A DNA stretch of 55,543 bases from Nitrospirota bacterium (GTDB taxonomy: Bacteria > Nitrospirota > UBA9217): the NCBI GenBank assembly GCA_029858565.1, contig JAOUEV010000017.1, forward strand, positions 1-55,543. The letters are read 5' to 3'. Made by a program: the position numbers and the translations under genes. Positions 36,099 to 52,949 of this stretch are shown here, one piece after another; the first letter of the stretch is position 1, and every line of letters begins with the position of its first letter. The notes beneath the pieces were generated by a model. The model was not told the origin of the DNA and searched no databases. It saw nothing but the letters and a program-made list of their open reading frames with translations.

Positions 36099-37307
36099 TC
36101 ACATCAGCGTTACGTGAAAGTTCATCGGACGAAGCACATAGCCGGCGCTTCTCAGGGATGGCCTTTGCAGCGGAAGCACTTTCGGCGCCTTGCTGCTTGC
36201 CCGAAAAACGAGATAGATATGATAATTTGCCAAGCTTTCGGATTTGTCCAGCTCATTTGTTGAAATGTAAAAGCCTCCGCTCAGATTAGCAGCGCTTGTT
36301 GATTTCACTTCAATCGGTCGTTCACTTCCATCTACATCGAATGAGAGGATATCATAACCAGCACCGGCGTTTCTCTGAGATACGTGAACGATCCTTCTAG
36401 CGAGCTCTCTTTTACCCGCATCGATGAATCTCTTTTTCTCAAGTTCGAGGACGACTGCTTCTCCTCGGTCACCAATCCGCCTCAATTGTTTCTGACGCAT
36501 TTCGAAATCACCGGGACCCGTGTTGCCTCGTTCAGGAGTCGTGCGTTGCATGGGCGGCATCTCATCGATAAAAGCCGCCCCCTCTATGGCGTCACTGAGA
36601 ACCGGATAGGAGCCAGTCGCAGTAGCAGTAGCGGATGCGGCCTGATCGGGCGGATATCCAAACACGTGGTACAGCAACCGCATATATAAATAGATCGGTT
36701 GAGACGTTAGATCCGGCCATGTGGAACGGTATTCCATCAGGGCTTTCTGCATCGCAACTTCGGAATCAAAAGTTCCCGGAAGATTGAGCTCAGAAACGAA
36801 ATGCTGAAGATGACGTTTTGAGTAAATGGGCGCGAATCTATCGGGATAGTACAGGAAAAGGATCTTCCCTTTGAACATAGGGGATATCTTGTTTTCTTTG
36901 ATTGCGGCCATGTCATCTGTTTTCGCCGCATCCAGGAGCTGAACAAGAGCAGCCTTTATGTTATCGAAGGCCTGCGTATGATTGCCTCCCCAATGTGCTG
37001 CATGGCGGTATCTCTCTCTGTGGTCGCTCTTCGTTTTGCCGTAGTAGACGCCGAACTTAGCAGCCGTCGCACCCAGGATACGGCCGCATTTATCTAACTC
37101 GCGCTCTAATCTATAGCAAAACGATCGGTTGTCTCTTCCCCTCCCAATTACGAAGTCGTCTATCCGCATCTGCGCTATCTTACGCGGTGTATAATCGGAC
37201 ACAAACCGCCGTCGGCGCTCCTCAGTAGCTCTCCATTCTTCGCGGTCTCTCTCAACAAGAATCGGCACCTGCGCGTTGATCTGTTCTGCCATTTCTATGC
37301 GATTCAT
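36099..37307 (-). CDS. DUF3883 (NOV_C, PD-(D/E)xK) domain nuclease with distinct N-terminal domain
   Basis: IGDRGEAVVLELE, GAGYDILSF, IEVKST, FYISTNE. Confidence 0.85.
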   Translation of the reverse strand: MNRIEMAEQINAQVPILVERDREEWRATEERRRRFVSDYTPRKIAQMRIDDFVIGRGRDNRSFCYRLERELDKCGRILGATAAKFGVYYGKTKSDHRERYRHAAHWGGNHTQAFDNIKAALVQLLDAAKTDDMAAIKENKISPMFKGKILFLYYPDRFAPIYSKRHLQHFVSELNLPGTFDSEVAMQKALMEYRSTWPDLTSQPIYLYMRLLYHVFGYPPDQAASATATATGSYPVLSDAIEGAAFIDEMPPMQRTTPERGNTGPGDFEMRQKQLRRIGDRGEAVVLELEKKRFIDAGKRELARRIVHVSQRNAGAGYDILSFDVDGSERPIEVKSTSAANLSGGFYISTNELDKSESLANYHIYLVFRASSKAPKVLPLQRPSLRSAGYVLRPMNFHVTLM

Positions 37308-37356
37308 GATTAGTCCTTTTTGCTATGGGACATAAAGGAGTGTCTGTTTCTTTCGG

Positions 37357-40170
37357 CTATCCTACATGTATCCCGACTAACGCCGTCGTCACTCGCGCCC
37401 GTTTCTGGCGGTCCGGGATCCATTCCAGGATTACGCTCTTCATGGCTTCATCAAAACGCGCCTGAAGCCTGTTGACATCAAGACCTGCCAAAGACGGCGG
37501 GTTGGCAACACTCTCGGCCTTTGTCCATTCTATACGTTCGCATTCCTCTATATTCCCTTCCGGAACACCCCGCAAAGTGAGCACGCGCGAGGTTGCATGT
37601 CCTGGCTTATCTTCATATCGGACAAGATACCGGGCGTAGATTACTACTTCACTGCCGATCTGTGAAACCTCACCTGTAAAGCTCGGCTCAGACACCTCTT
37701 TTAGAAGAGCATCAATCAACGGATGCCCGATGCCGCCCAGCTCACTGCCGCGCTTTCTGAGAGACAGCGCACGATCAAAGCATACGTTCTCGTAGCGCGG
37801 CGCAAGATGATAGCGGCGCTGCAAGGATTCAGGAACATGGAATGTCCATAGTTCACCTTCCGGCATTGCTGCACCACCGAGACGAAGGATGGTGCTTCGC
37901 ACCCACTGACCCAACTCGTCCATCGTATGTCTGCCCTCGATGCGACGGTAATTTTCCAGGTTGAACTGGGTCAGATCCTGAGAAAGAGCGCTCAGTGCTT
38001 CCCGAGCCCGGTTTGCCTCCTTGATCATCTCAACCATGTCCTTCTCTGTCCTTCGGTAATCCCGATCAACCAGAGCGCGTTTGTACAATTCCTGATAATC
38101 GGGACGGCTTCCTAACAGACCGAGGATTTCGCTTTGAAAATCTTCCCGCACATGCCCTTGTTCATCCACCTTGCCGATGGACTCCGCAATCTCAGTTAAT
38201 TTATATTGAAGCATGTCATAGATACGTTCTTCTACTGTATCGTCGGCAAAAAGGTTGTACACCTGCACTGTCTCAAGCTGGCCGTAGCGATGAATGCGGC
38301 CGATGCGCTGCTCCACAGCCATGGGATTCCAAGGCAGGTCGTAATTGAACAGTATTCTACCGATCTGCAGGTTGATGCCTTCGCCTCCTGCTGACGTGCA
38401 AATCAGGAAGCGCGCACCGTTCTCTTTCCAAAAAGACTCCATCGCAGCGATCTTGTCTTCAAGCGGACCGCCTTTAATATTCGCGATAAAACCATGACCA
38501 AAAATGCGGCCCAATTCCTCGGAAAGAAATTCGAGCGTATCCCGATACTGCGTGAAAATAACAAACCGCTCAGCTGGATTGTCCCGTGATAGATCACTAA
38601 TCGCGCGCACTAGCGTTTCAAAGCGGCGGTCTGTGCCATCCGGCACATGGCTGATGAGATCGCGTACTTTCCGTATCTCATCCGGAATGTCAGTCTCAGC
38701 GAACACTCCCTCTTCGCCTTCTTCATCACCGTCGAGCGACCAGTCGGTCGTCTCTGCCTGTTCCTCTCGCTTCTGCAAACGCCGCCTGACGCGGCCAACA
38801 TAGGCCTCGGCATCACTGTTCGTTGCTGACGCTTCCCCGAGGATCGCCCGGGCCACGGCTTGCGTCTCATCCTGGAGGCGCATGATCTCTTCTGCAAAAG
38901 ATGCAGCTTTCGCGGGTGTCTGCGTACTGCGTCGTCGGGTTTCCAATTCAAGCTGTTTGCGTACGAGCAAGACCAAGAGCCGCCGCCGCAGTGCCTGGCG
39001 GATAGCTCGCGGACTGGAAGACATGATCTTCTGGAACGTCGCCATAACAAAGCCGATCGCCCGCTGCTGGCTTGTAGTCCTCTTTTGATCGATACCAGCT
39101 GCGCTGTAGCCTTCGCGCAGATACTCACTCAATTGATCGTAAAAATGCCGCTCGCGTGGGGCAAGCGAGAAACGTTCGGTATGCACCTGACGCCTGCGGA
39201 AGATCGGCTCGCCGGATGAATCAGTCACTTCGCGTTTTGTGCGCCGGATCATGACACGGTTCAAGAGACCCATGCGGTTATTAACCGCTTCCGGGTCCGC
39301 AAAGAGCTGGTCATCGAGAATCTGGATCAAAGACCAAAACTGAAACGCGTTGCCCTGATGAGGTGTAGCGGAAAGGAAGATAAGATCGCGCGCGTGGTTC
39401 CGCAAGGCCTCTGCAAGTTTGTAGTTTTGCGTGGTCACCGTCTTCTTGCCGCTCTTGGTGCGTGAAACATGGTGCGCCTCGTCGATGATCACTAGGTCCC
39501 ACGGAGCAGCCGCAAGCATCCGCTGCATACGGCGCGGCACTTTAAGCGTATCTATCGAAACGATGACCTGATGGTGACGTTCCCAGGCAGCAGAACCATG
39601 GTCCTGAAAATCCCGGCCCAAGATATCGAAATGCAGCCGGAAACAGCTATCGAGTTCCCTGCGCCAGTTCTCGACCAGGCCGGCAGGGGTCACGATCAGG
39701 ATGCGCTCTACGTCTTTACGCGCTATCAACTCGCGGATCAGCATCCCCGTTTCGATGGTCTTTCCAAGACCGACTTCATCAGCGATCAGCACTCGGCGGG
39801 GAGATTGATTGACCAGATCATGAACCATGAGGATCTGGTGCGGAAGCAAATCCACCCGGCTTGCGGAAAGTTCGCCGCCCGTGTTGGCAAAGCTCATATC
39901 AAGGGCCATCTGCTTGATACGATAGTCCCGGGGATCGTCAAAGCTCCCGGCAGCAAGTCTCTCCCACAAGTCAGCGGCCTTCTCCAGCCATTCAATCGGC
40001 ACGTTCTCGACTCGCTCGCCATCTGCTGTTTTAAAAAGCACCTTGGCCTGATAAACGCCTAACTCTTCGGAGACGCGTATTACCTCTCCGACACCCCACT
40101 CTGGATGGCTCTTCACGCGGACTTTGTCGTCCCGATTGATTGCTATATATGCTGTACTCGTCTCACTCAT
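37357..40170 (-). CDS. SNF2-family helicase (defence-associated)
   Basis: LLPHQ, ADEVGLGKT, DEAHH, LSATPHQG, GGEGINLQ, PWNPMAVEQRIGRIHRYGQ. Confidence 0.93.
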   Translation of the reverse strand: MSETSTAYIAINRDDKVRVKSHPEWGVGEVIRVSEELGVYQAKVLFKTADGERVENVPIEWLEKAADLWERLAAGSFDDPRDYRIKQMALDMSFANTGGELSASRVDLLPHQILMVHDLVNQSPRRVLIADEVGLGKTIETGMLIRELIARKDVERILIVTPAGLVENWRRELDSCFRLHFDILGRDFQDHGSAAWERHHQVIVSIDTLKVPRRMQRMLAAAPWDLVIIDEAHHVSRTKSGKKTVTTQNYKLAEALRNHARDLIFLSATPHQGNAFQFWSLIQILDDQLFADPEAVNNRMGLLNRVMIRRTKREVTDSSGEPIFRRRQVHTERFSLAPRERHFYDQLSEYLREGYSAAGIDQKRTTSQQRAIGFVMATFQKIMSSSPRAIRQALRRRLLVLLVRKQLELETRRRSTQTPAKAASFAEEIMRLQDETQAVARAILGEASATNSDAEAYVGRVRRRLQKREEQAETTDWSLDGDEEGEEGVFAETDIPDEIRKVRDLISHVPDGTDRRFETLVRAISDLSRDNPAERFVIFTQYRDTLEFLSEELGRIFGHGFIANIKGGPLEDKIAAMESFWKENGARFLICTSAGGEGINLQIGRILFNYDLPWNPMAVEQRIGRIHRYGQLETVQVYNLFADDTVEERIYDMLQYKLTEIAESIGKVDEQGHVREDFQSEILGLLGSRPDYQELYKRALVDRDYRRTEKDMVEMIKEANRAREALSALSQDLTQFNLENYRRIEGRHTMDELGQWVRSTILRLGGAAMPEGELWTFHVPESLQRRYHLAPRYENVCFDRALSLRKRGSELGGIGHPLIDALLKEVSEPSFTGEVSQIGSEVVIYARYLVRYEDKPGHATSRVLTLRGVPEGNIEECERIEWTKAESVANPPSLAGLDVNRLQARFDEAMKSVILEWIPDRQKRARVTTALVGIHVG

Positions 40171-40589
40171 GTCAAATTAAACCCCACAAGATAAAATTCA
40201 TTGCCTGCCCGATCCTGTTTGTGCGGTGAACCGAAGATGCGACGCAGGGAAATTCGTTCCAGTCCTACTTCGAACCAGAAGTCGTCGGCTTGATTCAATT
40301 TCCGTTTGAATACGATCTGTACATAGCCGCCCATTCGTTCCAGCTCATTTGCCCGCGATGCTAATAAATCGTGAATGTATGAAGAAACAGAATCCCGATT
40401 CTCCCCTGCTGCTATCAGCACATCTTCGACACCTTCGATGAGGATCTTATGGCCTCGCGGAAAGTGGAACGGCTCTTCCCGCAGTTCGCGGAGATAATCC
40501 AGAAAGCCCATCCGGACTTGATTCGGCTCAATGCCGCCTTCTCTTTCATCCTTCAGAAACTTAGTTTCGATAAGCAGGTATCCTGCCAT
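40167..40589 (-). CDS. Small conserved-looking protein, possibly inactive P-loop (BrxB/BrxF-like role)
   Basis: 140 aa, start overlaps the methylase stop (TGATG), stop overlaps the helicase start (ATGA); Walker-B-like ILIEGVED. Confidence 0.7.
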   Translation of the reverse strand: MAGYLLIETKFLKDEREGGIEPNQVRMGFLDYLRELREEPFHFPRGHKILIEGVEDVLIAAGENRDSVSSYIHDLLASRANELERMGGYVQIVFKRKLNQADDFWFEVGLERISLRRIFGSPHKQDRAGNEFYLVGFNLT

Positions 40590-43500
40590 CAGATCGCCCC
40601 TCCATGGCGCAACAGAGGCGCGCCCTCTATGACCCCGATCACCCGGTCGATTGCGCCTTCCCAATCCGACCGAAGCTGCCGTACATACCGCAAACCGGCA
40701 AGAATTTCAGAACGCCTGGCATCGAACCGTTCGAGCCACGGCAGAACACTCTCTCCTGCATCTGACAATGCGATAAGAGCATGCAGCAAGTCTACCAGCA
40801 GCACTTTGTTATTCGACGGCAATTCGCCCTCAAACAGCTCTTCCTGCGTTTCGCCGGTTTTCGCTCTCAGTATTGAGAGTACATCTTCCAGCCGTTCCCT
40901 TGGTTGTTTTACCTCGTAGGTACGACCGCGTCCGGTCCTCCCTTTCACTATCAGTCCTGCCTTTTTCAGATCCTCTGTGCTCACTTGAAGCGCCCGCGTA
41001 CTCTTGGTGATCTTGTCCATGCTCACTTCGCGGCTATGCCCGGCCAAAAGTCGCAGCCACGCATAAGTGAGAAAATCCACCTCTTCCAGTTCCGGCGGCA
41101 AAGGCCGCTCGCGCGTCACGAGTTGATCAACGATGCTGCTGATGTCCTGAAGCGCCTTATGGAGAGGATAAGTCATTCCTTCATGGTCCAGCACCTTGTC
41201 ATAGTGCGTGCTGTAAAGTTCCAGACACTTGCCGATGCAGATCAACCGCACATCCGGTTCCGGCAATGGTTTGTTCCCGTATCGCCCAGCCTCAATAGCC
41301 AAAAGTTCCGCCCGTGCAAGACGACGAACTTCCTGTCGAATGCCCGCCCATGATCGCGCAGTCGGGTCTTCCTTGCGCTTACGGCAGACGTGGATAAGGT
41401 CAAATGAAATATTTTCTTTATCCATCAAGTGGAGGGATGATTCTGCTTCGCTATGAACTGGGTAAACAGCGGCAATTTCAAAGCCAGTATCGCACAATGA
41501 CTGGAGCAACCCTTCCCACACAGTGCCTGCCTGGTCAGTGTGATGAAACGTAAAAATCAATAACCCGTCTTCCGGCAATTGGTCATGAACACGCTGAAAT
41601 ACAGTGGAAAGTCCCTTATAAAAATCTTCCCGGCTTTTTCCGCGTGTCCGATTTTCGACAACCTCTTCCGTTTTTGGGGTATATTCCGGCGCAAACCAAG
41701 AGTAATGGCCTTTAAGTGCCAGCCGCAGCCAAACATAAAAGAAGTCGGCGAGCTCCGAGTAATTGACGTTGCCAACGTAAGGCGGATCAGTAACAACAAT
41801 CGTGGGTGTTTCCGATGATACTTCTGCTGAATTCGCGCAATGCAACAAACGACTAGCATCAGTCAATTTATCGGTTTGAATTTTAACACGGTTCTCATCA
41901 TCAGTATTCGCTTTAAAGTCCCATCCTTCTGTTTGGTAATCAACACCGCCAACTACGAGCCCATATTCAGACAAAAAGGACCCAGCGGCGATACTCGGCA
42001 AACCAAAAACATTATTTTCCGCTGTCGTTATTTTTGTTTGGAAGTCGTGCCGTGCAAAAACGCCCTCAGCGGTCAGACTGCCTACTGCAGAGCGAGATAC
42101 ACGGTGGCGTGTAAATAGATTGTTAGCTTCCAGCGTATTTGAATACGCACACAACAGCATCTCCATCAGCTTCTCGTCCTTCTCAGCCATGATACCTTCA
42201 AGCAATGTTGAAAGCGCAAGAAGCTGGCGCGTCCCAAACATATCGTGCCATTGATTGTAGTGATGTTGAAGCAGTCGCGCAGTTTCTGCCCCATTTGGAA
42301 TAACACTCTTGGGATATGGCAGGCCTGCCTTGTTCTTCTCCCACAGGCGTTCTGCATTTTGTAAACGTGCCTGATCGGAGGCTGACCAGCGCTTAAAGAA
42401 CTTGCCATTTTTAGGAAGAAGCAATCCCTTTATTTCATCATTAGAAAGGGTACCTGATGCTTGTGACAAAACGCCGAACATCGTTTGCTGACTATCATCC
42501 ACCTCTTCTACCGGCAGGACATAGGCTTGAAGTGCATAAGGACGAACTGGCAATCTGCGCTCCTGCGGAAGCAGTCTAATGCTTTCAATGATCCTATCCT
42601 TGTTTCCACAGCGGCACTGGAAATAACCCTTCTCAGGAAGATTGCCTTTGCTCGGATCATAGTTATGATTGCACGCGGGGCAAGATAATTCACCCTCGGG
42701 TAGGGGGCCGCGCCACTGCCATACCGCTTCACAGGATGGGCAAAGCATCACAGTGATCTGAACTTTTTTCCGTGCCTTCTTCTTGTCCCACGGAACCCTT
42801 GCCTTGAAATTCTTCTCACAGTGAGGACAATCCAGCGTCACAAGGCTTTCATTTGATTTTTTCTTAGGCTTGGGGGGCTCGACCGTGTAAGTCCATGCCG
42901 TAGTAGGCCTTCCTTCGCCGCCGGACCCGCGAGAGCTGTTAACCATCATTGCCGGTTCAGCAATAAGTGAAGCAACATCCACTTCCCAATCAAAGGTCTT
43001 CTTGCATTCTGGACATTTTGTATCGCGATGATAGCGTACAGAAACCGTCTTTGCGGCTACGAAATAATCCTTGAACAATGGGACTTCTTTTTTACAGGTG
43101 GGATCTGTGCAAATCGCATGTTTGACCCAGAAGGTATAGATGACATCCGCATCAATGCCGGACGCTACCTCGGTCTTGTACAGATCAAGAAGCGTCTCGC
43201 GCATGGGCTTTCCGTTATTCCAAGCTACAGGTCGCGCTGCCAGTCTTTCGAAGGCTGCCTTGAGCGCATCGATTTCGACCGGTTCCACTTCTGTCTTGAC
43301 GATGAACCAGGCAACCGGATTCAGGTCTATTCCCACGACCTTACAGCCAAGCCGCAGCGCCTCCACCACAGTCGTACCGCCACCCATGAACGGATCGAGC
43401 ACCACCTTGCCCGTGGTATCCGGGTCTTTGTTGTGGTCCTTGTAGAACTCCGCCATGAGGTCAACCGGCGTTCCGTCTTCTTTGTATGCCGGTTTGAGCG

Positions 43501-43675: not shown

Positions 43676-45507
43676 ATCACAGAGTTATTTGCAATAGCAG
43701 AGAATCCCGTGAATATATCCACTACATCTTGCAATGCTTGCGGTTTTGATTTCATAGCAATGTCCACATATGCCTCTCGGATTCGCGTGTGGTCTGACTG
43801 GAAAAATTCACCGCAGAATCTATTAAAAATCAATTTACCAGGAAGCATCAACTTAAATGCATCCGATTCAAGCGATTTACGAAGCCGCTCATGCTCGGCT
43901 CTTATCGCAGCATCAAGCGCTTGAGGGCTTAGTGATGACGATATTGTGGAAAAAGAAGATGCCACTTGGCTTGAAATATCATTGATAACTTCATCAATCG
44001 ATAAACGATCAATATTTCGAACAGTTGGTTGAGGTAAAGCGCCCATGAGCCGTATATGCTCTCGTACATTCCATAGCACGGCAGGCATCAAACTGGATGC
44101 CGCAGTATGTACCAGGGTCTCTCTTATTTTGCTTGGGTCTCTACGATCTGTTGGCAAATACAAGGTCTTAGCCACTTCGGAAAGTACATGTTCATCAAGA
44201 AAATAATTTTCTACATGGCGCGCAGGAAGACACTTAAACCGCTTGTTTGTTTCCAAGGTTGCAATAACATCGTTGGATAGTCCGTCGCGATCGCGAACGA
44301 GAAATAGCTCAATGCCAAATATCGCGCTGCCAAGTTCATCAATGACCGATCGGAGCGCGATGATGTTTTCAACAGAACCAATTGGCATTAAGTAGGAATC
44401 AGGAAAGGTCGTTTGTGCGACCTTATGATATACAAGACGGTCGATGCTTGCGGTATTGCCTTCGATAAACACCAGCCGTTTGCCCACAGCAAACAAGCCA
44501 AGATTGGCACCAGCGGATCGGGTCACAGCAGAATTAATATCATTTAATGAGCTTAATTTATGAGCTTGATTGCCGTTTGTCGCGGCAGCATCGATAAAGA
44601 AAACATTTCCAGCAGAGTAATAAGTTGAAATCAGATCGGCAGAATGTGTGAACAGAATAAGCTGATTGGTTCCTCCCCCAAAATCCTTTAATGTTTCAAT
44701 TAACCGAAACGCGAGTGTGGGGTGAAGATGGAGCTCTGGTTCATCGATGAGAATAATAGAATGCGTAATTTGCTTCCAAACCAGGTCAAACGCAATCTTA
44801 ACGACTTCCTGCTCCCCCGAACTCAGCGCGCCGAAAGCCATGGGCTGAGACGTACCAATCCTGTAGTGAAATTCCCGTGGCGCTTTAGGATCTATTGGCT
44901 CTAATGTCTTTCCCGGTAAAAGGCGGGTAAACATCTCCTGGTAGGCAAGGAAAGGATCTGGATGTTTTAGCAAAGCTTCACTACCAAGTCGGTCTGGATG
45001 TGCCTTTATAAAATTTGCAATCTTTTGATCCCGGTTTGCGGCCTTCTTATATATTTTATTAACGAGTTCCTGCCAGCGTCCAATAAATGGGTTCAAATAC
45101 CATGAATAAGGTGTATCTTGGTCATCTGGGTCTGGTGTGGCCAACGTGAATTGCTCGAATCGCACCGGTTGAACGGCTCTATTGGAGTCAATTTGAATGA
45201 CTGCGCCTGTATATGCCTGATTGCCACGACGAGACGCAAGATATTGCTCTAGTTGTTGGCACCTTTGCTGGACATTGACGGCGATCGACATTGATTTCCA
45301 TGCATCTTCCTCTTCTTGCCGTGTAGCCGACAATCCCATTGTAACGCTCGGCGAACCTGGCGACTGAAACGTACTAACTATGGCTTGTTTGAGTCGCGTC
45401 TTTCCAGAACCGTTGGCGCCAGCAATAATGACAACATTCGATGACGCTTCTATTTCCAAAGCGCGAATTGGTGGATAGTTCTTAATAGCGATGCGATCCA
45501 GCCTCAT
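43672..45507 (-). CDS. ABC-ATPase + TOPRIM (OLD/DUF4435-like) ATP-dependent nuclease
   Basis: GANGSGKT, LSSGE, IDEPELHLHP, THS; FIEG..D, RDRD, VENY. Confidence 0.82.
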   Translation of the reverse strand: MRLDRIAIKNYPPIRALEIEASSNVVIIAGANGSGKTRLKQAIVSTFQSPGSPSVTMGLSATRQEEEDAWKSMSIAVNVQQRCQQLEQYLASRRGNQAYTGAVIQIDSNRAVQPVRFEQFTLATPDPDDQDTPYSWYLNPFIGRWQELVNKIYKKAANRDQKIANFIKAHPDRLGSEALLKHPDPFLAYQEMFTRLLPGKTLEPIDPKAPREFHYRIGTSQPMAFGALSSGEQEVVKIAFDLVWKQITHSIILIDEPELHLHPTLAFRLIETLKDFGGGTNQLILFTHSADLISTYYSAGNVFFIDAAATNGNQAHKLSSLNDINSAVTRSAGANLGLFAVGKRLVFIEGNTASIDRLVYHKVAQTTFPDSYLMPIGSVENIIALRSVIDELGSAIFGIELFLVRDRDGLSNDVIATLETNKRFKCLPARHVENYFLDEHVLSEVAKTLYLPTDRRDPSKIRETLVHTAASSLMPAVLWNVREHIRLMGALPQPTVRNIDRLSIDEVINDISSQVASSFSTISSSLSPQALDAAIRAEHERLRKSLESDAFKLMLPGKLIFNRFCGEFFQSDHTRIREAYVDIAMKSKPQALQDVVDIFTGFSAIANNSVI

Positions 45508-45568
45508 TTTGATTCAACCTCCTTGCTGCCCGAGCATCTTCTTTCTGACCAGATACGATTCTGCGACA

Positions 45569-46432
45569 TCAGATAGCACAATCCTTGATGAATCCATTCT
45601 CTTCGCATATCGTATTGTGGTATTGAGCCAGCCATTCGTATTTGGCTCGGACATGAGTGTCTGAAATATTTTTCGACGCTGTAGTAATCGCGTCTCTGTG
45701 CCGTTGTAGCAATTTAATCGCATTTGATCGGTAGCCAATGGTCATTATTTCACTTTTTCGTTCACCTGTTGCCTGCCTATACTCTTCAATTTGCTTCATG
45801 GAAGTATGCCATCCTACTGACTGCATACATATATTCAGATAGTCGATAAAGTACTTCGGTGTCTTGCTTTTTGTCTCTGCATATTTACGGAACGTCATTG
45901 GTATCGGGTCTATATCATTGCTATAATGCTTTCTGTGTTTGTGCTTTTCAAAGTAGCCGTAAACCTGGTCAGAAAGCATCAACACCGGAACATTGGCTTC
46001 ACGTTCAAGATTATATGCATTTGCCATTGCTGGACTAATCAACAGATCGCCGTCCGCATACCACCAGCCGAAATCGATGCCTCCGCGCAAGAAATAGCCA
46101 TTGAGTACACTATTACCTTGAGCATATGCGAAGGAAGTGAATTCGCTCATTATTGAATCGAATGCCCCCTCCGTTTCGGTCATATCTGATTTTATTGGTA
46201 TAGATATGACTATACAGTCGGAAAAAGCCAACACTTCTTTCTTATATAATGCATGCATTCGTTGAATATCAATGTCAGAAGATCGATACTCGAACTCATC
46301 ACGGACTTTCCGTAGTGCTTTTTCGATTTCTTCAAGTTCTTCCTTGGAACGAACCGATCGCACTTTATCAGAAAAACCGAGCAAATCGACGAACGCGCTA
46401 ATCGTGTGGCACAGCTTTGACTCATCTATCAT
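45569..46432 (-). CDS. Divergent class III nucleotidyl-cyclase-like protein
   Basis: AFVDLLGFS, FSD, LRGGIDFG, PAMANAYNLE echo the cyclase motifs; start at 46432 behind AGGAG. Confidence 0.6.
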   Translation of the reverse strand: MIDESKLCHTISAFVDLLGFSDKVRSVRSKEELEEIEKALRKVRDEFEYRSSDIDIQRMHALYKKEVLAFSDCIVISIPIKSDMTETEGAFDSIMSEFTSFAYAQGNSVLNGYFLRGGIDFGWWYADGDLLISPAMANAYNLEREANVPVLMLSDQVYGYFEKHKHRKHYSNDIDPIPMTFRKYAETKSKTPKYFIDYLNICMQSVGWHTSMKQIEEYRQATGERKSEIMTIGYRSNAIKLLQRHRDAITTASKNISDTHVRAKYEWLAQYHNTICEENGFIKDCAI

Positions 46433-46445
46433 GCCGTTCCTTCTC

Positions 46446-46796
46446 CTACAGAGCCGCAAATATTTGTCGTACGATCTTGTTTGTCATCGTATTGGAAAAA
46501 GACGCCACAACGCTTCCTTGCGTCGTTCCCTGCCGTAGCTCTACCTCGCCTGTATCATGGTTGTATGAGAGAGCGTATCTTTTCCCGGCCACCTTGAACC
46601 ACAAAACGTTCTTCATTTCACCTTCACGTACCATAATTTCAAGTGGATCATTATCCTTCCGCCATAACACACCGCCCGCTATGGCCAATGCTACTTCGTT
46701 AACATCTTGCGCGTGATGGTCTGCCCTATCAACAACGCCCTTAAGATAATCTCTCAAAAGATCAACATCAGTTATTTGCTGTGGCATGTGAGCCAC
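46446..46796 (-). CDS. Integron-cassette-type protein (VCH_CASS1-like)
   Basis: YLKGVVDRADHHA..V..VALAIAG.VLW, NVLWF..GKRYALSYNH. Confidence 0.65.
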   Translation of the reverse strand: MAHMPQQITDVDLLRDYLKGVVDRADHHAQDVNEVALAIAGGVLWRKDNDPLEIMVREGEMKNVLWFKVAGKRYALSYNHDTGEVELRQGTTQGSVVASFSNTMTNKIVRQIFAAL

Positions 46797-46822
46797 CCCC
46801 TCACGCTTATTTTGATGCGTGT

Positions 46823-47662
46823 TTATTTTCCGGCTGCTTTTGCTGTTTTTTCTACTTTAGTTAGCAAGCGGATCGCGGCATGATACGTTGCTAAATAAAA
46901 ATGAAACATCCATGCATACCAGATGTTCTTGTCATAGTTTGATTTCTGCTTCGGATCGTGATGACGTATGGAGAAATTGTTCGCTATATCAAACAGCGCA
47001 GACTCATCCTTGCCGTCAAGCACTTTATCGAGGCCCTTGGTCTTCTTGAGCCACTCGAAGACATCCGCCATCTCCCGAACAGCTTCTTTCTTTTCTGTAA
47101 AAGACAAATGGCGATTTCGCCATTTTGTAATTGCATTTCTCACCTTGCTATCCACATTGGCTTCATCGTATGGGAGTATTTCAGCATCAAGTATGTGTTG
47201 TAGTCCTTGAGAACCAATAGCGAGGATAGTCCCGTCTTTCATCAGTTCGTATCCTGTCTTGTAATCACAAAGGAACGAGTTAGCCGTGTCTCTGAATTCT
47301 GAACGGCCGGCGTCGCTATCATAAGAACCGTAGTCTGAGTAGTTCCACCCCGAATCCGACACGAAGTCTTCCAATTTGCCCGGCTTAGACACGTGGTCAT
47401 AAAGAAACTCAAGCGCATCGAAGATATGATCCTCGGTAATTATTTCTTGCGCCCATTTCGTTATCGGAAAAGGCTGGAATGTCAATGCAATCGCAGCTTC
47501 GTGCTTTATAGAATCAGGGATGCCAGTTTCCGTAATCCCAGCCTTTTCTTTAAAATAGTCTTTGCTGCGAAAAAGCAGAAATAGATTCTGCATCTTCCAA
47601 TAAAGCTCTTCCAGAGTTAGGCTCGTCTGATTCTTTCTTGAACTATAATATCGTTTCGCCAT
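46823..47662 (-). CDS. AbiJ-like / HEPN-like hypothetical defence protein
   Basis: FDALEFLY, INSERT-free C-terminal helical region with ANNFSIRHH, reminiscent of AbiJ-related proteins. Confidence 0.5.
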   Translation of the reverse strand: MAKRYYSSRKNQTSLTLEELYWKMQNLFLLFRSKDYFKEKAGITETGIPDSIKHEAAIALTFQPFPITKWAQEIITEDHIFDALEFLYDHVSKPGKLEDFVSDSGWNYSDYGSYDSDAGRSEFRDTANSFLCDYKTGYELMKDGTILAIGSQGLQHILDAEILPYDEANVDSKVRNAITKWRNRHLSFTEKKEAVREMADVFEWLKKTKGLDKVLDGKDESALFDIANNFSIRHHDPKQKSNYDKNIWYAWMFHFYLATYHAAIRLLTKVEKTAKAAGK

Positions 47663-47679
47663 ACTGTGATTCCAGATTC

Positions 47680-47838
47680 CTATTGCACACTATATTCCAG
47701 ATCAGCTCTACCCGAATCCCAAGTATGAATGTAGGACAGTCCGATATGTGCTACTGACAGAATACAGACCAGCAATACGTGATACTTGTTCAGCCAGATT
47801 CTTGCATTTTGGACTACTCGCTTCATTTTATTGTCCAT
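47680..47838 (-). CDS. Small single-TM protein (52 aa) or gene fragment
   Basis: AGGAGG RBS before MDNKMKR, hydrophobic VLLVCILSVAHIGLSYI. Confidence 0.4.
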   Translation of the reverse strand: MDNKMKRVVQNARIWLNKYHVLLVCILSVAHIGLSYIHTWDSGRADLEYSVQ

Positions 47839-47954
47839 AGTCGTTCCCTCCTGATTGTTGGTATTCGGGACCGCCCTACAGACATACTCGGTAGCCACCA
47901 GGCCATGTAGTTCGGGAATCGAGTACAACTGATCTGTTTATCCTCCTCTAATAA

Positions 47955-48470
47955 TTACAATCGAAGGTCCGTCGGATAGTGGACCGCGATCTCTGTTACC
48001 CCATGAAATGCCTTATCGCTCGACACGAGCACATCCGCCTTCAGCCTCAGTGCTACCGCCAGCACTACTGCGTCATTCGTGAGAAAGCCGTACTTCTCCT
48101 GCATCTTGAACGCGGTCTTCGTGAGGTCTTCCAGTGTGCAGGCCGCGAACCCAAGTCCAAGGTCCACGAGTGCATTGACCTTTGCCCGGTAGAGGCTCAG
48201 GCCTTTGACGACCTCTGGTTTTGACGCAAGGCGCAGTGCCGGTTTTCCCTCCGCGACGAGGCCCTTCATCATTGCCTCTGCAAGCATCAACTTGTGAGTC
48301 AACTCCTGCCACACGGTCTGCGGCAGAATGCCTGACAACTCACCCTGGGCGCAGCGCCGGATAAATCTCTGGGCCTGGACCGAAGAGCCTTGCTCCGCAT
48401 AGAGCAACACATTCGTGTCGATCACGCAGACGCTGCCGCTCGGGATATCATCGAGATTTACAGATCCCAC
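47955..48470 (-). CDS. PIN-domain (VapC-like) toxin
   Basis: VIDTNVLLY, ELTHKLMLAE, FLTNDAV, SSDKAF. Confidence 0.88.
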   Translation of the reverse strand: MGSVNLDDIPSGSVCVIDTNVLLYAEQGSSVQAQRFIRRCAQGELSGILPQTVWQELTHKLMLAEAMMKGLVAEGKPALRLASKPEVVKGLSLYRAKVNALVDLGLGFAACTLEDLTKTAFKMQEKYGFLTNDAVVLAVALRLKADVLVSSDKAFHGVTEIAVHYPTDLRL

Positions 48471-48700
48471 GCATCCTCCTCAAGAACCGCCTTGAACTGC
48501 GCAGAGGTCAACTTCATCGGTCGATCGCAAAAGAGTTGATAAGCGGCATCTCGTTTTACCGGATCGGCGCCCTTGGGAGACAGATAGTTTTCGAGTGCTT
48601 CCTGGATCACATCGCTCAAGGGGCGCCCTTCATCTGCAGCTCGGCGTTTTGCCCGGCGCAGCACGTCTTCTTCCAACAGTGTTCCGACTTTCTGTTTCAT
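48458..48700 (-). CDS. Ribbon-helix-helix antitoxin
   Basis: KVGTLLEEDVLRRAKRRA..GRPLSDVIQEAL; overlaps the PIN gene. Confidence 0.82.
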   Translation of the reverse strand: MKQKVGTLLEEDVLRRAKRRAADEGRPLSDVIQEALENYLSPKGADPVKRDAAYQLFCDRPMKLTSAQFKAVLEEDAWDL

Positions 48701-48712
48701 ACGACACCTCCG

Positions 48713-49705
48713 TTAATTCACCGGTCCCAGCACGATCCACGGCGTGAGCATTTCCATGAGCGTCAATGCACCGTGCCGATAGACGGACTGCGCGCCCGGC
48801 CCTTGTATCCTGTTGTGCCCTCGTCCTGCGATCACCGCCAGCCGCATGGCAGGATCGACCCACAGCCCATCACCTGCCTTTGGCAGCTGTTCGGTTGGTC
48901 CGAAAAAACGATAGCGCTTTCCTTCCAGAGCCCGGTCTACGTCTTTCAAACCGGGATCGCTCAAGCCGGGGCCAAGAAATATATATCCATGGTCGCTCGT
49001 TACGAGTACTTTTCGATCCGGCGGCACCGCCTGGACCGTGCGCTTCCATGCCTGCTCCAGCCCGTCCCAAATGCCGTCGAACATCGACTCATCGGTTGCG
49101 GTGCTGTCGGTGTAGCGCTGGTCCGGAAACCGGGACCAGAGAAGCATTGACTCGTCGCCGTCTCTGATCGTGTGATGATCGCTGGTCTGGCCAAAGTAGT
49201 AAAACCGGATATTCCTTTGCTTCAATTCTCCACGGCCGGTGAGCTGCGAGGGACCAATATCCTTCGGCAGGCCAAGGCCGAGACGCTCGGATATGAAATA
49301 TTCGGTCTCGCTCGGCACAGCAGCGCGGCTGCACCCGCTTTCCAGAACAGCGCGCCGGGAGTCCTTAGCCAGGGCGATTAGCCTCGGCATCTCCCGAAGC
49401 GAACAGCCGTCCAATATCACGACAGCGCTTTTCTGGTTGCGCCCGAAGAAGGAGGCGACCGTCCTTTCCGCTGACGGCGGCGCAGTCAGCTCAGCAAAAA
49501 GCGATGAAGCCGAGCTTCGTAAAGCATTTTCCCTCTCATTCACCAGTACTTCACCGCGCCGCAGATAGTCCTTAGGCGAGTTGCCCGATGCGGCAAACGC
49601 GTCCTGGGACCAAACTTCATTAAGCAGCCAGTTTTCAAGTCCCGACAGACGCGGGCCAGGCTGCGTGAGGCGCTCAATGAGGGCGCGATCCAGCGCGGCT
49701 TTCAT
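48713..49705 (-). CDS. Stand-alone PglZ-like alkaline-phosphatase-superfamily protein
   Basis: VILDGCSLRE, VPSET, VTSDHGY, HGALTLMEMLTPW. Confidence 0.78.
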   Translation of the reverse strand: MKAALDRALIERLTQPGPRLSGLENWLLNEVWSQDAFAASGNSPKDYLRRGEVLVNERENALRSSASSLFAELTAPPSAERTVASFFGRNQKSAVVILDGCSLREMPRLIALAKDSRRAVLESGCSRAAVPSETEYFISERLGLGLPKDIGPSQLTGRGELKQRNIRFYYFGQTSDHHTIRDGDESMLLWSRFPDQRYTDSTATDESMFDGIWDGLEQAWKRTVQAVPPDRKVLVTSDHGYIFLGPGLSDPGLKDVDRALEGKRYRFFGPTEQLPKAGDGLWVDPAMRLAVIAGRGHNRIQGPGAQSVYRHGALTLMEMLTPWIVLGPVN

Positions 49706-49707
49706 TT

Positions 49708-52320
49708 TTATGCACCCTCCCGGTTTCTGCGGCCTTCATTCTGAAGCTCAACGCTGAAACGCGCCATGTAACTTGCCCCCGACAGGTTGGGAAGTTTTTC
49801 ACAATGCTGTTCCAATCCTGCCTTGGTCATCGGTCCAGGCACCATGATATCGAGTTGCACCCCTACATCACCGGACCCTGAAAGCGCGCCGCGATACGCG
49901 GCAGGCAGACTGGACAGGTCCTGGCCTTTATAATCCGCAAAAATGGTGAAACGCACTGTTCGGACGATCGGATCGTCCATATCAGTGAGCCGAGCGGCGG
50001 TCTGCTGACGAAGCTCGCCAAGACTGCGACAGGACGGAGTGCTTCTCTCTTCAACCGTGACCGCGGGAGTGGATGGCGGCTGTTCTCCGGGTTCCACGTC
50101 CGATTCTGCTGGCTGATCCGTGGTCGTAGCAGGTGTAGTACCGGGCTGTGACGGGCGCTCGGGCCTCTCAGCCTGTGTCTGCCAGGGTGTGCTGACCACT
50201 GCCTGATTCAGTTCAGAATCCGTAAGCGATACACGTTCACCGCAGAAATTCCCTCTCGGATGCTGTAAACCAAGAACAGGATTTCGATCCGCTGCAAGAG
50301 AACGGAGAATATCCGTTACCACGGTTACAGTAAGCGGAACAGGATAGCCTAAAGAGTTCCGATAGGCACGCTCGATCTGCTCTACCCGCTGTCCGAAGAA
50401 GACCGAAAGATTTCTCCGGAGATGTTCTTCGATCAACGAAGGCGGAAAGACCTGAGAGCGAAGATAGGTAAGCACTTCCTCCTTGCTGCCGGCCTGACCC
50501 AGATTTTCTTCCTCGAACTGCGTTTGGGAAACCTGATCGCCCCAGCGCTCGATCCTGATGTACAACAATCCCGCTGACTTTAACGTGCGTTGGATCTGCT
50601 GCACCTGCGCCCGCTCGATCTGTTCGAACTTCGTTCGGCGTTCAGCGTTAGAAGATGATGCGGCAAGCAACCGCGCAGCCTTGAGGCGCTTGGCAAGCGC
50701 CAGCAGGTCGGGATTTGTAAGATGATCCACTCTCGGGTCGCGCGGCTCAAGCAGGAGCACCTGGTTCCTGAGCTCAAGCCCCTGATAGAGAGCGAACCGT
50801 TCAGCCTGTGACAAGCGGCGAGGCGCTAAGACATATCGCTGACCGTGCCTGGAGAAGCCCTGAAGCGCTAGCTTTGTTTCTTCCAGATCGCGGTAAATGG
50901 CCGCCTGATGATTCTCCCGAAATACCTCCTGCAGCCAAAGTTGAATGACCTGCTCGCGCGCTGTGTCGTCACTGTGCCGCATAGCGTCGAGCTCGACCTT
51001 GGCGTATTCATTTTCCACTAGATCGAAAAGGAAACGGCCTTCGCGTTCGTGGAAATAGGTCCCATATCTTCTGAACGCCTCGAGACCGGCATGATACTGA
51101 TTCGGATCATCGCCGGGCTTGACAACATGCCGCACAAGCTCATCGGTCGTCATGCCGACAGCGCGACCGCCCGGAACCAGGCTCGCCAGCAGTACCGCAG
51201 ATGCAATAGCTTCCGCATACGGCTGTGCGGCAAGATCACGGTAATTGCCGGCAGCGGGATTGATCAGCGATCCGCCGGGGTCGAGATCAGAGAGACGGTC
51301 CGCGCAAACCGGATCGGTCACGCGACAATTGGATGCGGTCATCAAATAGGAACCTTCGGGAGTCGCGTCCAGCATGGCGCCGAGCAGGCCTAATGCGCTT
51401 CGTGTGCCTTGAAATCCGCCACTTTCCGTTATACGCTCAAAGACCAGTTCTATCAGATCGGGGAGGAACGGGAAGGACTCCTCCATACGACCGACGTAGC
51501 CATCGGGCACTTCCATCCCAAAGCGACGCCATGTGTTGATGTATGATTGGATAAGCGAACGTGCAGACTCCTTGTCATAGCTATCGGCGTTCTTAAACAG
51601 CCGGTGCCGAACAATGGATGCCCGATCCTGAGGTTTGCGGAAATGTAATTCTATTCTCTGCGTCCGCTTGAGCGTGGAACCTGGCTCCTTGTTGCCGTCG
51701 TAAACAGCAGCGAAGAGAGTCAAATGACTCCCCTCACGTCCTGCCTCCTCGCTCAGCATCTGGAGGAACGCTATATTCTGACTTCGCTTGGTCGAATCGG
51801 GTATAATATCAATGCCCCGTTCCAACTCATCGAGTATAAGAACCAGGTGGCAGTCCTTAATGGCAGCCCGGAAATCATCGAGGTCAGGTGCCCGCTCTGC
51901 GCTCCACTTGGCCTTGAGCCGCTGACCAATCAGCATCCAAAGCGCATCGCTCGGCATGGATTGATCGGTAAATTTATGGACGATGACTTCGGGATTCTTC
52001 GGTGGGGACCAGTCGTAACCGGCCTTCGCGGTCCAGGCTTTTGCTTCGGCAAGGCTCGCGAAGAGATGATAGCCTAAGAGAAGAGTATGAGATTTCCCGA
52101 GACCCTTGACCGCTTGGGCTAGGACTGTCCCCGGACCAGCCCCCTCTTTGAATCTCCTGCTGAGTCCCTTGAGAACCTTATGGAGGTCCTCGGAAAGATA
52201 CGTCAGCTCGAAGAACCGTTTGGCACTGCGCTCAAGACTGTCCGCAGGACCGGACCTAAGACGTTCGAGGTCGATAACACCATCTAGAGATTCTGTTGAT
52301 TCATAGCGTCGCTCTATCAT
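49708..52320 (-). CDS. DUF499-type AAA+ ATPase (BrxC-related)
   Basis: KGLGKSH Walker A, LILDE Walker B, IVRHRLF, SFPFLP, FQGTR; start re-called at ATG 52320. Confidence 0.82.
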   Translation of the reverse strand: MIERRYESTESLDGVIDLERLRSGPADSLERSAKRFFELTYLSEDLHKVLKGLSRRFKEGAGPGTVLAQAVKGLGKSHTLLLGYHLFASLAEAKAWTAKAGYDWSPPKNPEVIVHKFTDQSMPSDALWMLIGQRLKAKWSAERAPDLDDFRAAIKDCHLVLILDELERGIDIIPDSTKRSQNIAFLQMLSEEAGREGSHLTLFAAVYDGNKEPGSTLKRTQRIELHFRKPQDRASIVRHRLFKNADSYDKESARSLIQSYINTWRRFGMEVPDGYVGRMEESFPFLPDLIELVFERITESGGFQGTRSALGLLGAMLDATPEGSYLMTASNCRVTDPVCADRLSDLDPGGSLINPAAGNYRDLAAQPYAEAIASAVLLASLVPGGRAVGMTTDELVRHVVKPGDDPNQYHAGLEAFRRYGTYFHEREGRFLFDLVENEYAKVELDAMRHSDDTAREQVIQLWLQEVFRENHQAAIYRDLEETKLALQGFSRHGQRYVLAPRRLSQAERFALYQGLELRNQVLLLEPRDPRVDHLTNPDLLALAKRLKAARLLAASSSNAERRTKFEQIERAQVQQIQRTLKSAGLLYIRIERWGDQVSQTQFEEENLGQAGSKEEVLTYLRSQVFPPSLIEEHLRRNLSVFFGQRVEQIERAYRNSLGYPVPLTVTVVTDILRSLAADRNPVLGLQHPRGNFCGERVSLTDSELNQAVVSTPWQTQAERPERPSQPGTTPATTTDQPAESDVEPGEQPPSTPAVTVEERSTPSCRSLGELRQQTAARLTDMDDPIVRTVRFTIFADYKGQDLSSLPAAYRGALSGSGDVGVQLDIMVPGPMTKAGLEQHCEKLPNLSGASYMARFSVELQNEGRRNREGA

Positions 52321-52327
52321 GACTGGT

Positions 52328-52356
52328 AGAATAGCACAGAATTCTTGAAGTGTCAA
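52328..52356 (-). promoter_or_regulatory. Sigma70 promoter of the defence operon (probably leaderless)
   Basis: TTGACA-17-TATTCT with TG extension; ATG 7 nt downstream, no SD. Confidence 0.72.
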
Positions 52357-52439
52357 GAAAAATTATGCACGCAGACGGTATCGCTGGGACATTCAGGAGG
52401 GAATAATACAGAGGGTCTTGGGCTCACCCAGTTACTTAT

Positions 52440-52612
52440 TGTGCTAAAATTGTGCTAAAACGTATCCGAACAGGCATAATCATCGTAATAGCCGTAATCA
52501 CCGTAAGGTCACAAACTCCTTGATTCACTGGCAAAAACGGGAAACCAGGTGATAACTCAAGGATTGTGATTTTCAGCCCTGCCCTACTGGCCGTCTTGGG
52601 GTCAGGGGTTCG
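52440..52612 (+). repeat. attR-like end, copy 1 (arm-type sites plus tRNA 3' half)
   Basis: ~173 bp repeated at 54200-54372; opens with TGTGCTAAAA-T-TGTGCTAAAA. Confidence 0.88.
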
Positions 52613-52814
52613 ATACCCCTCAGCTCCACCAAAAACAACAAATGGGTTGGCGTAAGCCAGCCCGTTTTTGTTTTTGATCAAGTGGGGATCGAACGAGAGG
52701 GTCTGCGATTAGGGGACGTTGATACGTGAGCTGCATTTATCTCTAAGAACCAACTTCTTCGAGCCTAACCCGGGAATCGCGAGCAGGCCAGACTTCAGAA
52801 TTAATATTCTCTTC

Positions 52815-52925
52815 CGAATATTAGACAGTGAGATGAAAGAGGAGCTTGCGCGGATGGAGAAGGATTTGCAGCTTGGCGGTGGACCCTACTATCACTCACG
52901 AGATGAGCTGCATGAGCGTAACTGA
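52815..52925 (+). pseudogene. Possible antitoxin C-terminal remnant
   Basis: ...EELARMEKDLQLGGGPYYHSRDELHERN; the RDELHER ending is typical of small antitoxins; no toxin follows. Confidence 0.35.
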
Positions 52926-52949
52926 TAAAAGCATCGTCACATCCATCTT

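Follow-up and report, generated by a model that had tools for sequence, protein, structure and literature searches.

Contig JAOUEV010000017.1 of a Nitrospirota bacterium (assembly GCA_029858565.1) was analysed over its full length of 55,543 nucleotides (nt), which is called the window below. On its minus strand lies an operon whose genes recall more than one group of anti-phage systems. To which group does this operon belong, which of its genes are integral to it, and how might it be controlled? The first-pass annotation had described it as a hybrid methylation-based defence system outside the six BREX types. Judged by its gene content, the operon is a Type-3 BREX-Related (BR) system; it is not MANTIS/Gao_RL, not a fused-nuclease Hma system and not classical BREX. 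The description as BREX-related and outside the six types was correct, and the word hybrid is better replaced by a defined class with embedded cargo. New here are a conserved RHH-PIN gene pair with an operator-bearing promoter, two junctions that receive cargo, a predicted contact between PglZ and a small adaptor, and the demotion of a DUF3883 gene that had been counted as a component of the system.

Type-3 BR was named in silico by Rakesh and Krishnan (NAR 2026, January 2026; PMC12839542), who renamed the DUF499-centred systems BREX-Related. As that paper describes it, the class has an ATPase, a methylase and a nuclease-less BrxHII-like helicase, together with an active PglZ that stands alone and occurs in all 569 taxa; 82% of the taxa also have an inactive STAND protein (iSTAND). 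The iSTAND is an inactive P-loop domain whose Walker motifs are eroded; three strands are inserted after strand 4, and a C-terminal helical bundle is absent (PMC12839542). The neighbourhoods are described there as being without conserved stand-alone nucleases, which is a descriptive trait and not a criterion of the class. It had been supposed that such an architecture was noted only bioinformatically; this agrees with the status of Type-3 BR in PMC12839542, and no experimental study of the class was found in literature searches. The earlier account of the related systems was out of date. Gao_RL (Type-2 BR, with DUF3780) has been characterised experimentally as MANTIS (10.64898/2026.09.23.753747). 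HmaA of the helicase-methylase-ATPase operons, which PADLOC names Hma (PMC8565338), has been tested alone, in its Halomonas form, and defends against T4 by means of its NOV_C nickase (PMC11232893).

Gene content and core proteins

The operon and its five core genes are listed below, with protein lengths in amino acids (aa).

36099-52320, minus strand: operon of 12 open reading frames (ORFs), all in the same orientation
49708-52320, minus strand: DUF499-type AAA+ ATPase (HmaC/BrxC-like), 870 aa (Pfam DUF499, PADLOC HmaC)
48713-49705, minus strand: stand-alone compact PglZ, 330 aa (AlphaFold2 (AF2) model and Foldseek)
40589-43675, minus strand: DUF1156 N6-adenine DNA methyltransferase (HmaB-like), 1028 aa (Pfam DUF1156, N6_N4_Mtase)
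40167-40589, minus strand: 140-aa protein of family PF26277, iSTAND-like (AF2 model, fold comparison)
37357-40170, minus strand: SNF2 helicase (BrxHII-like) with no nuclease, 937 aa (Pfam SNF2-rel_dom, Helicase_C)

All 12 ORFs were open, and the ATPase, PglZ-like, methylase, 140-aa, helicase and DUF3883 genes named in the first-pass annotation were all confirmed on the minus strand. The tight or overlapping junctions that it had reported were also found: the spacer from the ATPase gene to the PglZ gene is 2 nt, the methylase stop and the start of the 140-aa gene overlap by 1 nt (TGATG), and the 140-aa and helicase genes overlap by 4 nt (ATGA). The last cargo gene and the methylase start overlap by 4 nt. 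The operon had been placed from position 52356. The TTG at this position was rejected as the ATPase start; it is the first base of the -35 hexamer TTGACA. For this reason, and since relatives match the 870-aa form from its first residue onward, the start is placed at ATG 52320.

The ATPase passed the Pfam DUF499 cut-off (24.6 bits against 23) and matched HmaC at 7.8e-17 (PADLOC figures here and below are matches to single-protein PADLOC models). Its Walker A motif (GLGKS) lies at residues 73-77 and its Walker B motif (VLILDE) at 160. The methylase scored 28 bits against the DUF1156 cut-off of 24 and matched HmaB at 6.1e-45. It has motif I at residue 92 and DPPY at 630, and the insert between them holds four CxxC motifs, which match the double Zn-finger subset described for Type-3 BR (PMC12839542). 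The helicase carries GLGKT at 134 and DEAH at 230. It matched the joint PADLOC model BrxHI/BrxHII at 7.2e-102 and HmaA at 2.6e-100, and the match to HmaA was confined to profile positions 22-646 of 1176. Pfam showed no NOV_C, PLD or restriction endonuclease (REase) domain in it, and the PADLOC model PLD_Helicase covered the helicase core alone (492-670).

The compact PglZ was identified from its predicted structure. [quoted passage not shown] Searched with Foldseek against the PDB, it reached PorX at 1.2e-9 and the BREX PglZ chain 9zn5_B at 4.1e-6. Residues D99, T134, D238, H239 and H311 are invariant in 21 sequences, and 557 homologues at E <= 0.001 were obtained out of 7368 candidates. The PADLOC PglZ model gave a weak match (7.6e-4). 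The distribution of the gene is patchy: it was present in 3 of 41 genomes of relatives, the window's own genome counted, and in 9 of 401 genomes of a phylum sample.

Conservation of the operon in related loci

A set of 52 related loci was compared, with gene maps made by tblastn. Two came from relatives and 50 from a genome scan with the PglZ alignment, a biased sample because the scan used peptide patterns of this PglZ subfamily. The loci belong to metagenome-assembled genomes labelled Nitrospirota, Gammaproteobacteria, Burkholderiales, Desulfobacterales, Acidobacteria, Binatia, NC10, Verrucomicrobiota, a planctomycete and others. The gene order in relatives is ATPase, PglZ, RHH80, PIN, methylase, 140-aa protein and helicase, where RHH80 and PIN are the two genes of the pair described below. 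All five core genes occur in the same order in 21 of the 52 loci, and 19 of these 21 have RHH and PIN as well; most loci with less than the full core lie on short or truncated contigs. This indicates that the arrangement is not due to chance. The 140-aa gene was found in 22 of the 24 loci that have both methylase and helicase. The core proteins and their relatives align end to end, with catalytic motifs intact. Two degraded relatives were also seen. L041 retains no more of the methylase than residues 11-99, ahead of the helicase, and in L024 the match to the methylase stops at residue 522, where it passes into an incomplete 140-aa gene.

Comparison with known systems

The locus shares with Type-3 BR, as published, the DUF499 ATPase, the DUF1156 N6-methylase, a BrxHII-like helicase that has no nuclease, a PglZ that stands alone and keeps its catalytic residues, and, perhaps, a small protein resembling an inactive P-loop domain (PMC12839542). 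It differs from the published description in two respects: members of this clade possess an apparently leaderless promoter with a palindrome as well as a conserved RHH-PIN pair, and in the window there are, besides, a PD-T4-1-like gene and OLD/PARIS-like cargo embedded in the operon. We assigned the locus to Type-3 BR because its architecture is the one published for this class, the Gao_RL equivalogs score low and the helicase is without the HmaA nuclease; neither BrxB nor a Pfam-level PglZ was found in the genome.

With regard to MANTIS/Gao_RL, the DUF499 ATPase and DUF1156 methylase genes are homologous. The NCBIfam equivalogs of Gao_RL scored far below their cut-offs, namely 50.9 against 1200 bits for DUF499_antiphage (ATPase) and 121 against 1000 for DUF1156_antiphage (methylase). 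In the working model of MANTIS, the ATPase and a co-factor load the methylase for hemimethylation and a helicase motor restricts (10.64898/2026.09.23.753747). The window is without a DUF3780-type MtsB and without the PLD-helicase MtsD, and has PglZ and the 140-aa protein instead. DUF3780 gave no Pfam match in any scanned ORF, so the reported lack of this family, with PglZ and a small protein in its Gao_RL place, was borne out.

Hma (Type-1 BR) supplied the best PADLOC models for the ATPase (HmaC) and the methylase (HmaB), and HmaA matched the helicase. As in Hma, cargo is embedded between system genes. However, the window's helicase has no fused NOV_C nuclease, NOV_C being encoded by a separate gene, and PglZ, the 140-aa protein and the RHH-PIN pair are additional. 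The ATPase and methylase genes are separated by seven ORFs, whereas the Hma survey allowed three (10.1101/2024.01.29.577857).

Classical BREX (types 1-6), above all type 3, shares the PglZ catalytic fold, the BrxC-like ATPase and the BrxHII-like helicase. Its PglZ is larger (879 residues for chain 9zn5_B against 330 aa), the window's ATPase is of the DUF499 type, and the 140-aa protein shows no profile similarity to BrxB. The genome of the window comprises 3.9 Mb in 144 contigs, one of which is the window, and is 100% complete by marker genes. In this genome no match to BrxB (PF08747) or to a Pfam-level PglZ was found; BrxA, BrxL and PglX were not searched as families.

The 140-aa protein and its predicted contact with PglZ

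Of 195 candidates, 184 were homologues of the 140-aa protein, every one tagged PF26277. Searches of Pfam, NCBIfam and PADLOC with the protein itself gave no family match. Its profile was run against 1.84 billion representatives and returned 85 proteins at E <= 0.001, the longest of 269 aa and most of about 140 aa or less, and these relatives gave no link to any larger family. A protein atlas returned unnamed clusters only, with scores < 0.9.

The AF2 model (pLDDT 89.2) has an alpha/beta fold with a three-strand insert at residues 98-114, after the strand at 89-94. There is no Walker A motif and no C-terminal bundle, and the protein appears as a degenerate P-loop-like domain. Foldseek found nothing in the PDB at E <= 0.001. 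In a fold comparison (VIA) the best Z values were 4.6-5.1, and all rows were AAA+/RecA-type chains, although these are weak matches. BrxB chains were absent among the rows, which is no evidence for a different fold. From the model, we read the 140-aa protein as the putative iSTAND of Type-3 BR.

The N-terminal domain of BREX PglZ, a metal-dependent nuclease, binds BrxB through residues 1-96 (PMC12205998). When PglZ and the 140-aa protein were both entered as alignments, the predicted complex scored 0.87, against 0.00 for the best of three controls. The mark for this score, which is reached by 58 of 80 solved complexes and by 2 of 110 mismatched pairs, was passed. The runs agreed in at least 89% of contacts, and the partner pLDDT was at least 89. 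The predicted interface involves PglZ residues 2-17 and 57-68, within the N-terminal helical domain. The 140-aa protein is thus predicted to bind PglZ at its N-terminal domain, in the manner of PglZ and BrxB in BREX (PMC12205998).

The RHH-PIN pair and its putative operator

Between PglZ and the methylase lies a pair of small genes, and a palindrome stands at the promoter of the operon.

48458-48700, minus strand: RHH80, ribbon-helix-helix (RHH; CopG/VapB-like) protein of 80 aa (profile match to CopG-family RHH)
47955-48470, minus strand: PIN-domain (VapC-like) nuclease, 171 aa (Pfam PIN)
52342-52359, minus strand: palindrome TTCTTGA-N4-TCAAGAA, putative operator, overlapping the -35 box
52328-52356, minus strand: promoter TTGACA-17-TATTCT, TG-extended (consensus match and conservation)

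The first-pass annotation had missed the RHH80 ORF, the conserved pair and the operator-bearing promoter. Searched against the PDB, the RHH80 profile reached the CopG-family RHH protein 9kkd_A at 5.4e-5, and Pfam RHH matches were weak. The PIN protein scored 38.8 bits against the Pfam cut-off of 23.6, and its acidic site (D18, E56, D133, D152) is intact. All 15 aligned sequences have D133 and D152, and all but L043 keep D18 and E56 (14 of 15). The 171-aa protein was also considered as the published iSTAND; this was rejected, as it passes the PIN cut-off and keeps the acidic quartet. The two genes overlap by 13 nt with RHH80 upstream, and this order holds in every locus having both. The RHH80 and PIN profiles reach the two chains of the VapBC structure 7by2 (E 0.031 and 0.11). 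As in VapBC with an RHH antitoxin (7by2), there is a putative PIN toxin with a four-acid site, an overlapping upstream RHH gene and a palindrome at the promoter. Unlike in VapBC, the ATPase and PglZ genes stand between the operator-promoter and the pair; any autoregulation would therefore govern the whole defence operon.

RHH80 was found in 41 of the 52 loci, and both genes occur together in 39 of the 42 loci having either. PIN is present in 31 of the 35 loci that span PglZ through methylase, and this synteny in relatives shows that the PIN gene is not cargo. The four PIN-less loci among the 35 (L035, L036, L040 and L042) have the most distant PglZ proteins, at 38-44% identity. Two of them have an ORF of their own between PglZ and methylase, of 196 aa in L035 (2930-3520) and of 288 aa in L042 (10960-11826). 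Neither had a PADLOC match, and they may be analogues of the RHH-PIN slot. In the main text of PMC12839542, PIN is named three times, never for Type-3 BR, and no RHH-PIN pair is found with this class; its supplements may list such neighbours.

The -10 box ends 7 nt upstream of ATG 52320, so the mRNA is apparently leaderless. The 'one strong promoter' proposed earlier stands in so far as this site is the best minus-strand consensus match in the region (10/12) and is conserved. Promoter-like sites in the region numbered 16, against 14.6 +/- 3.8 in shuffles; since this count is near the shuffle level, the weight of the promoter rests on conservation. Internal transcription starts are also possible, because a 363-nt gap inside the cargo holds promoter- and terminator-like sites at 46459-46526. 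Upstream of the ATPase gene in relatives, a conserved block consists of TTCTTGACA-NN-TCAAGAA, then a TATTCT-like -10 box and a start codon about 7 nt later. In seven loci with otherwise unrelated flanks, TTCTTGACA-NN-TCAAGAA with its -10 box is the only conserved upstream stretch.

With no mismatch allowed, the palindrome has exactly one site in the window. When up to two substitutions were permitted, 27 of 38 loci had a match 30-45 nt upstream of the ATPase start. Outside these positions, both strands of 1.17 Mb gave one unrelated match, plus the L045 promoter at a shifted estimate. No palindromic leaderless promoter was found for Type-3 BR in the main text of PMC12839542, though its supplements may list one. 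The palindrome is absent in 3 of 3 PIN-less loci examined (L040, L042 and L056), which have Shine-Dalgarno leaders. Locus L055 (genome G300) holds a stand-alone RHH80-PIN pair of 53-57% identity, with no other system gene within 10 kb on each side, and here the palindrome lies upstream of the pair, followed by a normal leader. A PIN scan of 400 genomes of another class gave one extra locus, with full system context, and no further stand-alone pair. RHH80 is a putative antitoxin and operator-binding repressor, and the simplest reading of these patterns is that the palindrome is the pair's own operator and controls the whole operon in this clade.

The pair could instead be a selfish addiction cassette that became fixed in the operon, with the palindrome bound by some other factor or being a feature of the promoter. 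Hma, BREX and related systems often contain embedded cassettes, toxin-antitoxin pairs among them (10.1101/2024.01.29.577857), and the distant class members L035, L036, L040, L042 and L056 do without the pair. In the decayed relative L054 (G008:C6:152500-172400), RHH80-PIN adjoins the promoter and ATPase residues 1-77, the helicase is 7.6 kb distant, and PglZ, methylase and the 140-aa gene gave no match; survival of the pair in such a remnant is typical addiction behaviour. Against this, the same palindrome-promoter precedes the stand-alone pair, and it is absent from the three PIN-less loci examined. The pair in the window also has no promoter gap of its own, starting 12 nt after PglZ, and the divergence of RHH-PIN tracks that of the core genes. 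On balance, we consider a selfish cassette unlikely and prefer the reading of the pair as the regulator of the operon.

Embedded cargo

Between PIN and the methylase, the window has a block of cargo genes.

43672-47928, minus strand: cargo block (OLD/PARIS-like, low GC) of four ORFs (GC content and absence in relatives)
47680-47928, minus strand: doubtful 82-aa ORF, first of the cargo block (GC 0.458)
46823-47662, minus strand: 279 aa, like the PADLOC candidate PDC-S32 (PADLOC 1.2e-9; GC 0.433)
45569-46459, minus strand: 296 aa, family not recognised, weak HEC-01B match (PADLOC 8.8e-4; GC 0.423)
43672-45507, minus strand: 611-aa OLD-family ABC ATPase with TOPRIM, like fused PARIS AriAB (GC 0.450)

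At 0.42-0.46, the four cargo ORFs have a lower GC content than the remaining eight ORFs of the operon (0.48-0.59), and none of the four has a homologue in the 52 loci. The 82-aa ORF has no family match either, and the 363-nt gap mentioned above precedes the 296-aa gene. The 611-aa protein matched PADLOC AriAB at 8.4e-51, as well as the ATPase-Toprim_I-B and Old models and Pfam AAA_21 and AAA_15, and carries the Walker A motif GANGSGKT. By its domain matches, it is an OLD/PARIS-type protein, an ABC ATPase with a C-terminal TOPRIM region.

Other loci carry different inserts at two places. At the PIN-methylase junction, inserts of 0.8-5.1 kb were found (L004-L007, L018, L039 and L048), and at the PglZ-RHH80 junction inserts of 1.5-9.4 kb (L012, L014, L015 and L039). 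In compact loci, PIN and methylase are 8-108 nt apart. Six of ten tested ORFs between PglZ and methylase in relatives matched PADLOC models at <= 1e-5, namely PDC-S33, Ppl-like, SIR2/pAgo-associated, PDC-S19, PDC-S54 and PDC-S60. Embedded genes, many of them for defence, were reported in 62.7% of Hma systems (Payne et al., 10.1101/2024.01.29.577857), and the variable inserts at the two junctions fit this idea. The locus is, as far as its sequence can tell, a genuine and intact member of the class described in silico, with embedded cargo as published for Hma.

The downstream DUF3883 gene

The last ORF of the operon lies downstream of the helicase.

36099-37307, minus strand: DUF3883/NOV_C PD-(D/E)xK protein (PD-T4-1-like), 402 aa (Pfam NOV_C, PADLOC PD-T4-1)

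The gene starts 49 nt after the helicase on the same strand, and its product has the PD-(D/E)xK motif D319...E331-V-K333. The genes found downstream of the helicase vary between loci (20 loci). A DUF3883 homologue was found in 0 of the 52 related loci, and NOV_C in 0 of 10 tested ORFs downstream of the helicase. We therefore rejected DUF3883 as a core gene, and its earlier listing as a system component is not supported by the comparison. The helicase-DUF3883 pair recurs in two metagenome loci only, L062 and L063, which are near relatives of the element, at 85-92% nucleotide identity. In L063, an insertion of about 3.07 kb (6621-9691) splits the DUF3883 gene near residue 205. We read the gene as a PD-T4-1-like and probably lineage-specific add-on.

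One alternative makes this nuclease the true effector. It would act in trans with the helicase as a split HmaA, and the locus would be a hybrid of Type-1 and Type-3 with two nucleases. Defence by Hma/Type-1 BR requires a NOV_C/DUF3883 nickase, which there forms one protein with the helicase (PMC11232893). The position of the gene directly behind the helicase is in line with this alternative, and the nucleotide homology shared with L062 and L063 reaches to the DUF3883 stop codon and no further, so the gene travels with the operon in this sub-lineage. However, the gene is missing from the related loci, and in L063 it is disrupted while the rest of the operon is intact. Its best model was full-length PD-T4-1 (5.5e-77; residues 24-400 against profile positions 25-376 of 383), a single-model PADLOC name, and no HmaA match was listed for it. 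A function in trans with the helicase is possible, but a split HmaA with DUF3883 as the effector seems improbable to us, and the gene is treated below as an add-on to a Type-3 BR core.

Proposed mode of action

Taken as a whole, the operon is likely a restriction-modification-like anti-phage system of Type-3 BR, governed by RHH-PIN, carrying exchangeable cargo and situated near tRNA-Ala. The scheme starts from the gene content, synteny, folds, motifs and operator conservation that were observed. The activities in it, the regulation and defence itself we infer.

By analogy with BREX and MANTIS, the DUF1156 methylase would mark host DNA with N6-methyladenine at a short motif, and the DUF499 ATPase would serve as loader and scaffold. 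The compact PglZ may be a metal-dependent phosphodiesterase or nuclease, tethered by its N-terminal domain to the 140-aa adaptor in a way that mirrors PglZ and BrxB. The SNF2 helicase would translocate on unmodified DNA. The whole operon would be read from the apparently leaderless promoter, whose -35 box lies inside the RHH-PIN palindrome. RHH80, probably together with PIN, would repress the operon, and the PIN RNase may serve as a backup or for addiction. Exchangeable defence cargo, here the OLD/PARIS-like module, would land at the two junctions on either side of the pair, and the PD-T4-1-like nuclease downstream would be an add-on of this lineage.

A more specific proposal is made only tentatively, and we would put it somewhat below an even chance. 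RHH-PIN may act as a master switch: bound to the palindrome over the -35 box, the RHH protein would hold the core genes and any embedded cargo in a repressed state, loss of the antitoxin on infection would derepress the operon and free PIN, and insertion at the two junctions would place new cargo under the same switch. PIN would then be a co-repressor, the freed PIN RNase an abortive backup, and the antitoxin presumably labile.

Several points weigh against the explanation as a whole. By sequence, PglZ falls below the Pfam PF08665 threshold, and its sequence-only matches to solved PglZ and PorX chains are weak (E 0.13-0.26). The iSTAND assignment depends on weak fold matches (Z <= 5.1), 0 of 23 members of the 140-aa family match PADLOC models, and hhalign of the family against five BrxB sequences gave a probability of 0.7%. 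The passing score of the predicted complex possibly reflects likeness, because a BrxB-PglZ complex (9zn5) had already been solved. The sample of loci is biased towards this PglZ subfamily by the way in which it was collected. The link between operator and RHH comes from one stand-alone locus and from PIN-less loci of one distant clade, so it amounts to about one independent contrast. Finally, a conserved PIN gene in this clade stands against the published statement that the class has no conserved stand-alone nucleases.

That the locus is an inactive relic on a decaying island is very improbable. In favour of a relic, the repeat-flanked stretch yielded no integrase, the S24 repressor gene next to the operon is interrupted and degraded relatives exist (L041, L054 and L063). 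Against it, each of the 12 ORFs is open, relatives match the core proteins over their whole length, catalytic motifs are intact and the overlapping start and stop codons are retained.

Type-3 BR is the smallest BREX-like machine described in the literature consulted, with a PglZ of 330 aa and an adaptor of 140 aa. Its small size, and a PglZ made up of a putative adaptor-binding N-terminal domain and a catalytic core, would make it a tractable model for two open questions of BREX: the role of PglZ and BrxB-like proteins, and how methylation is coupled with restriction. WYL-type regulators are known to wire defence expression to infection. If a toxin-antitoxin operator governs this operon, it would represent a new wiring of this kind, and operator control would also account for the arrival of exchangeable cargo at two fixed junctions.

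Genomic setting

The operon lies next to a tRNA gene and between repeats.

34346-34421, plus strand: tRNA-Ala(GGC), adjoining the operon-bearing stretch
34377-34498, plus strand: 122-nt direct repeat, copy 1, beginning inside tRNA-Ala
34561-34682, plus strand: 122-nt repeat, copy 2 (81% identity), left border of the operon-bearing stretch
52587-52708, plus strand: 122-nt repeat, copy 3 (97% identity), right border of the operon-bearing stretch
54469-54507: 122-nt repeat (tRNA-end), partial copy 4
35068-35271, minus strand: MazE/AbrB-type antitoxin (Pfam 9e-9)
34691-35065, minus strand: PIN toxin, 124 aa (Pfam 3.6e-14)
52440-52612 and 54200-54372: copies of a 173-nt repeat (93% identity)
52950-54158: AAA_14/DUF4143 ATPase (PADLOC PDC-S01 5.4e-49)

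Copies of the 122-nt repeat stand on either side of the operon, which therefore lies within a repeat-flanked stretch of about 17.9 kb. Outside this stretch lie housekeeping genes, with DUF1302 at one end and an M20 peptidase at the other. Within it, a second toxin-antitoxin pair, unrelated to RHH-PIN, occupies 34691-35271 on the minus strand. A gene for a repressor with a helix-turn-helix and an S24-peptidase domain (LexA/CI-like) is interrupted at 35168-36070 on the plus strand. Its first part stops at 35801-35803, after S24 profile positions 1-55, and its second part lies in the frame 35837-36070 and covers positions 49-116. The two halves are separated by a short insertion or a frameshift. 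Beyond the operon, a second small segment (52440-54507) is bounded by repeats, and the AAA_14/DUF4143 ATPase gene lies inside it.

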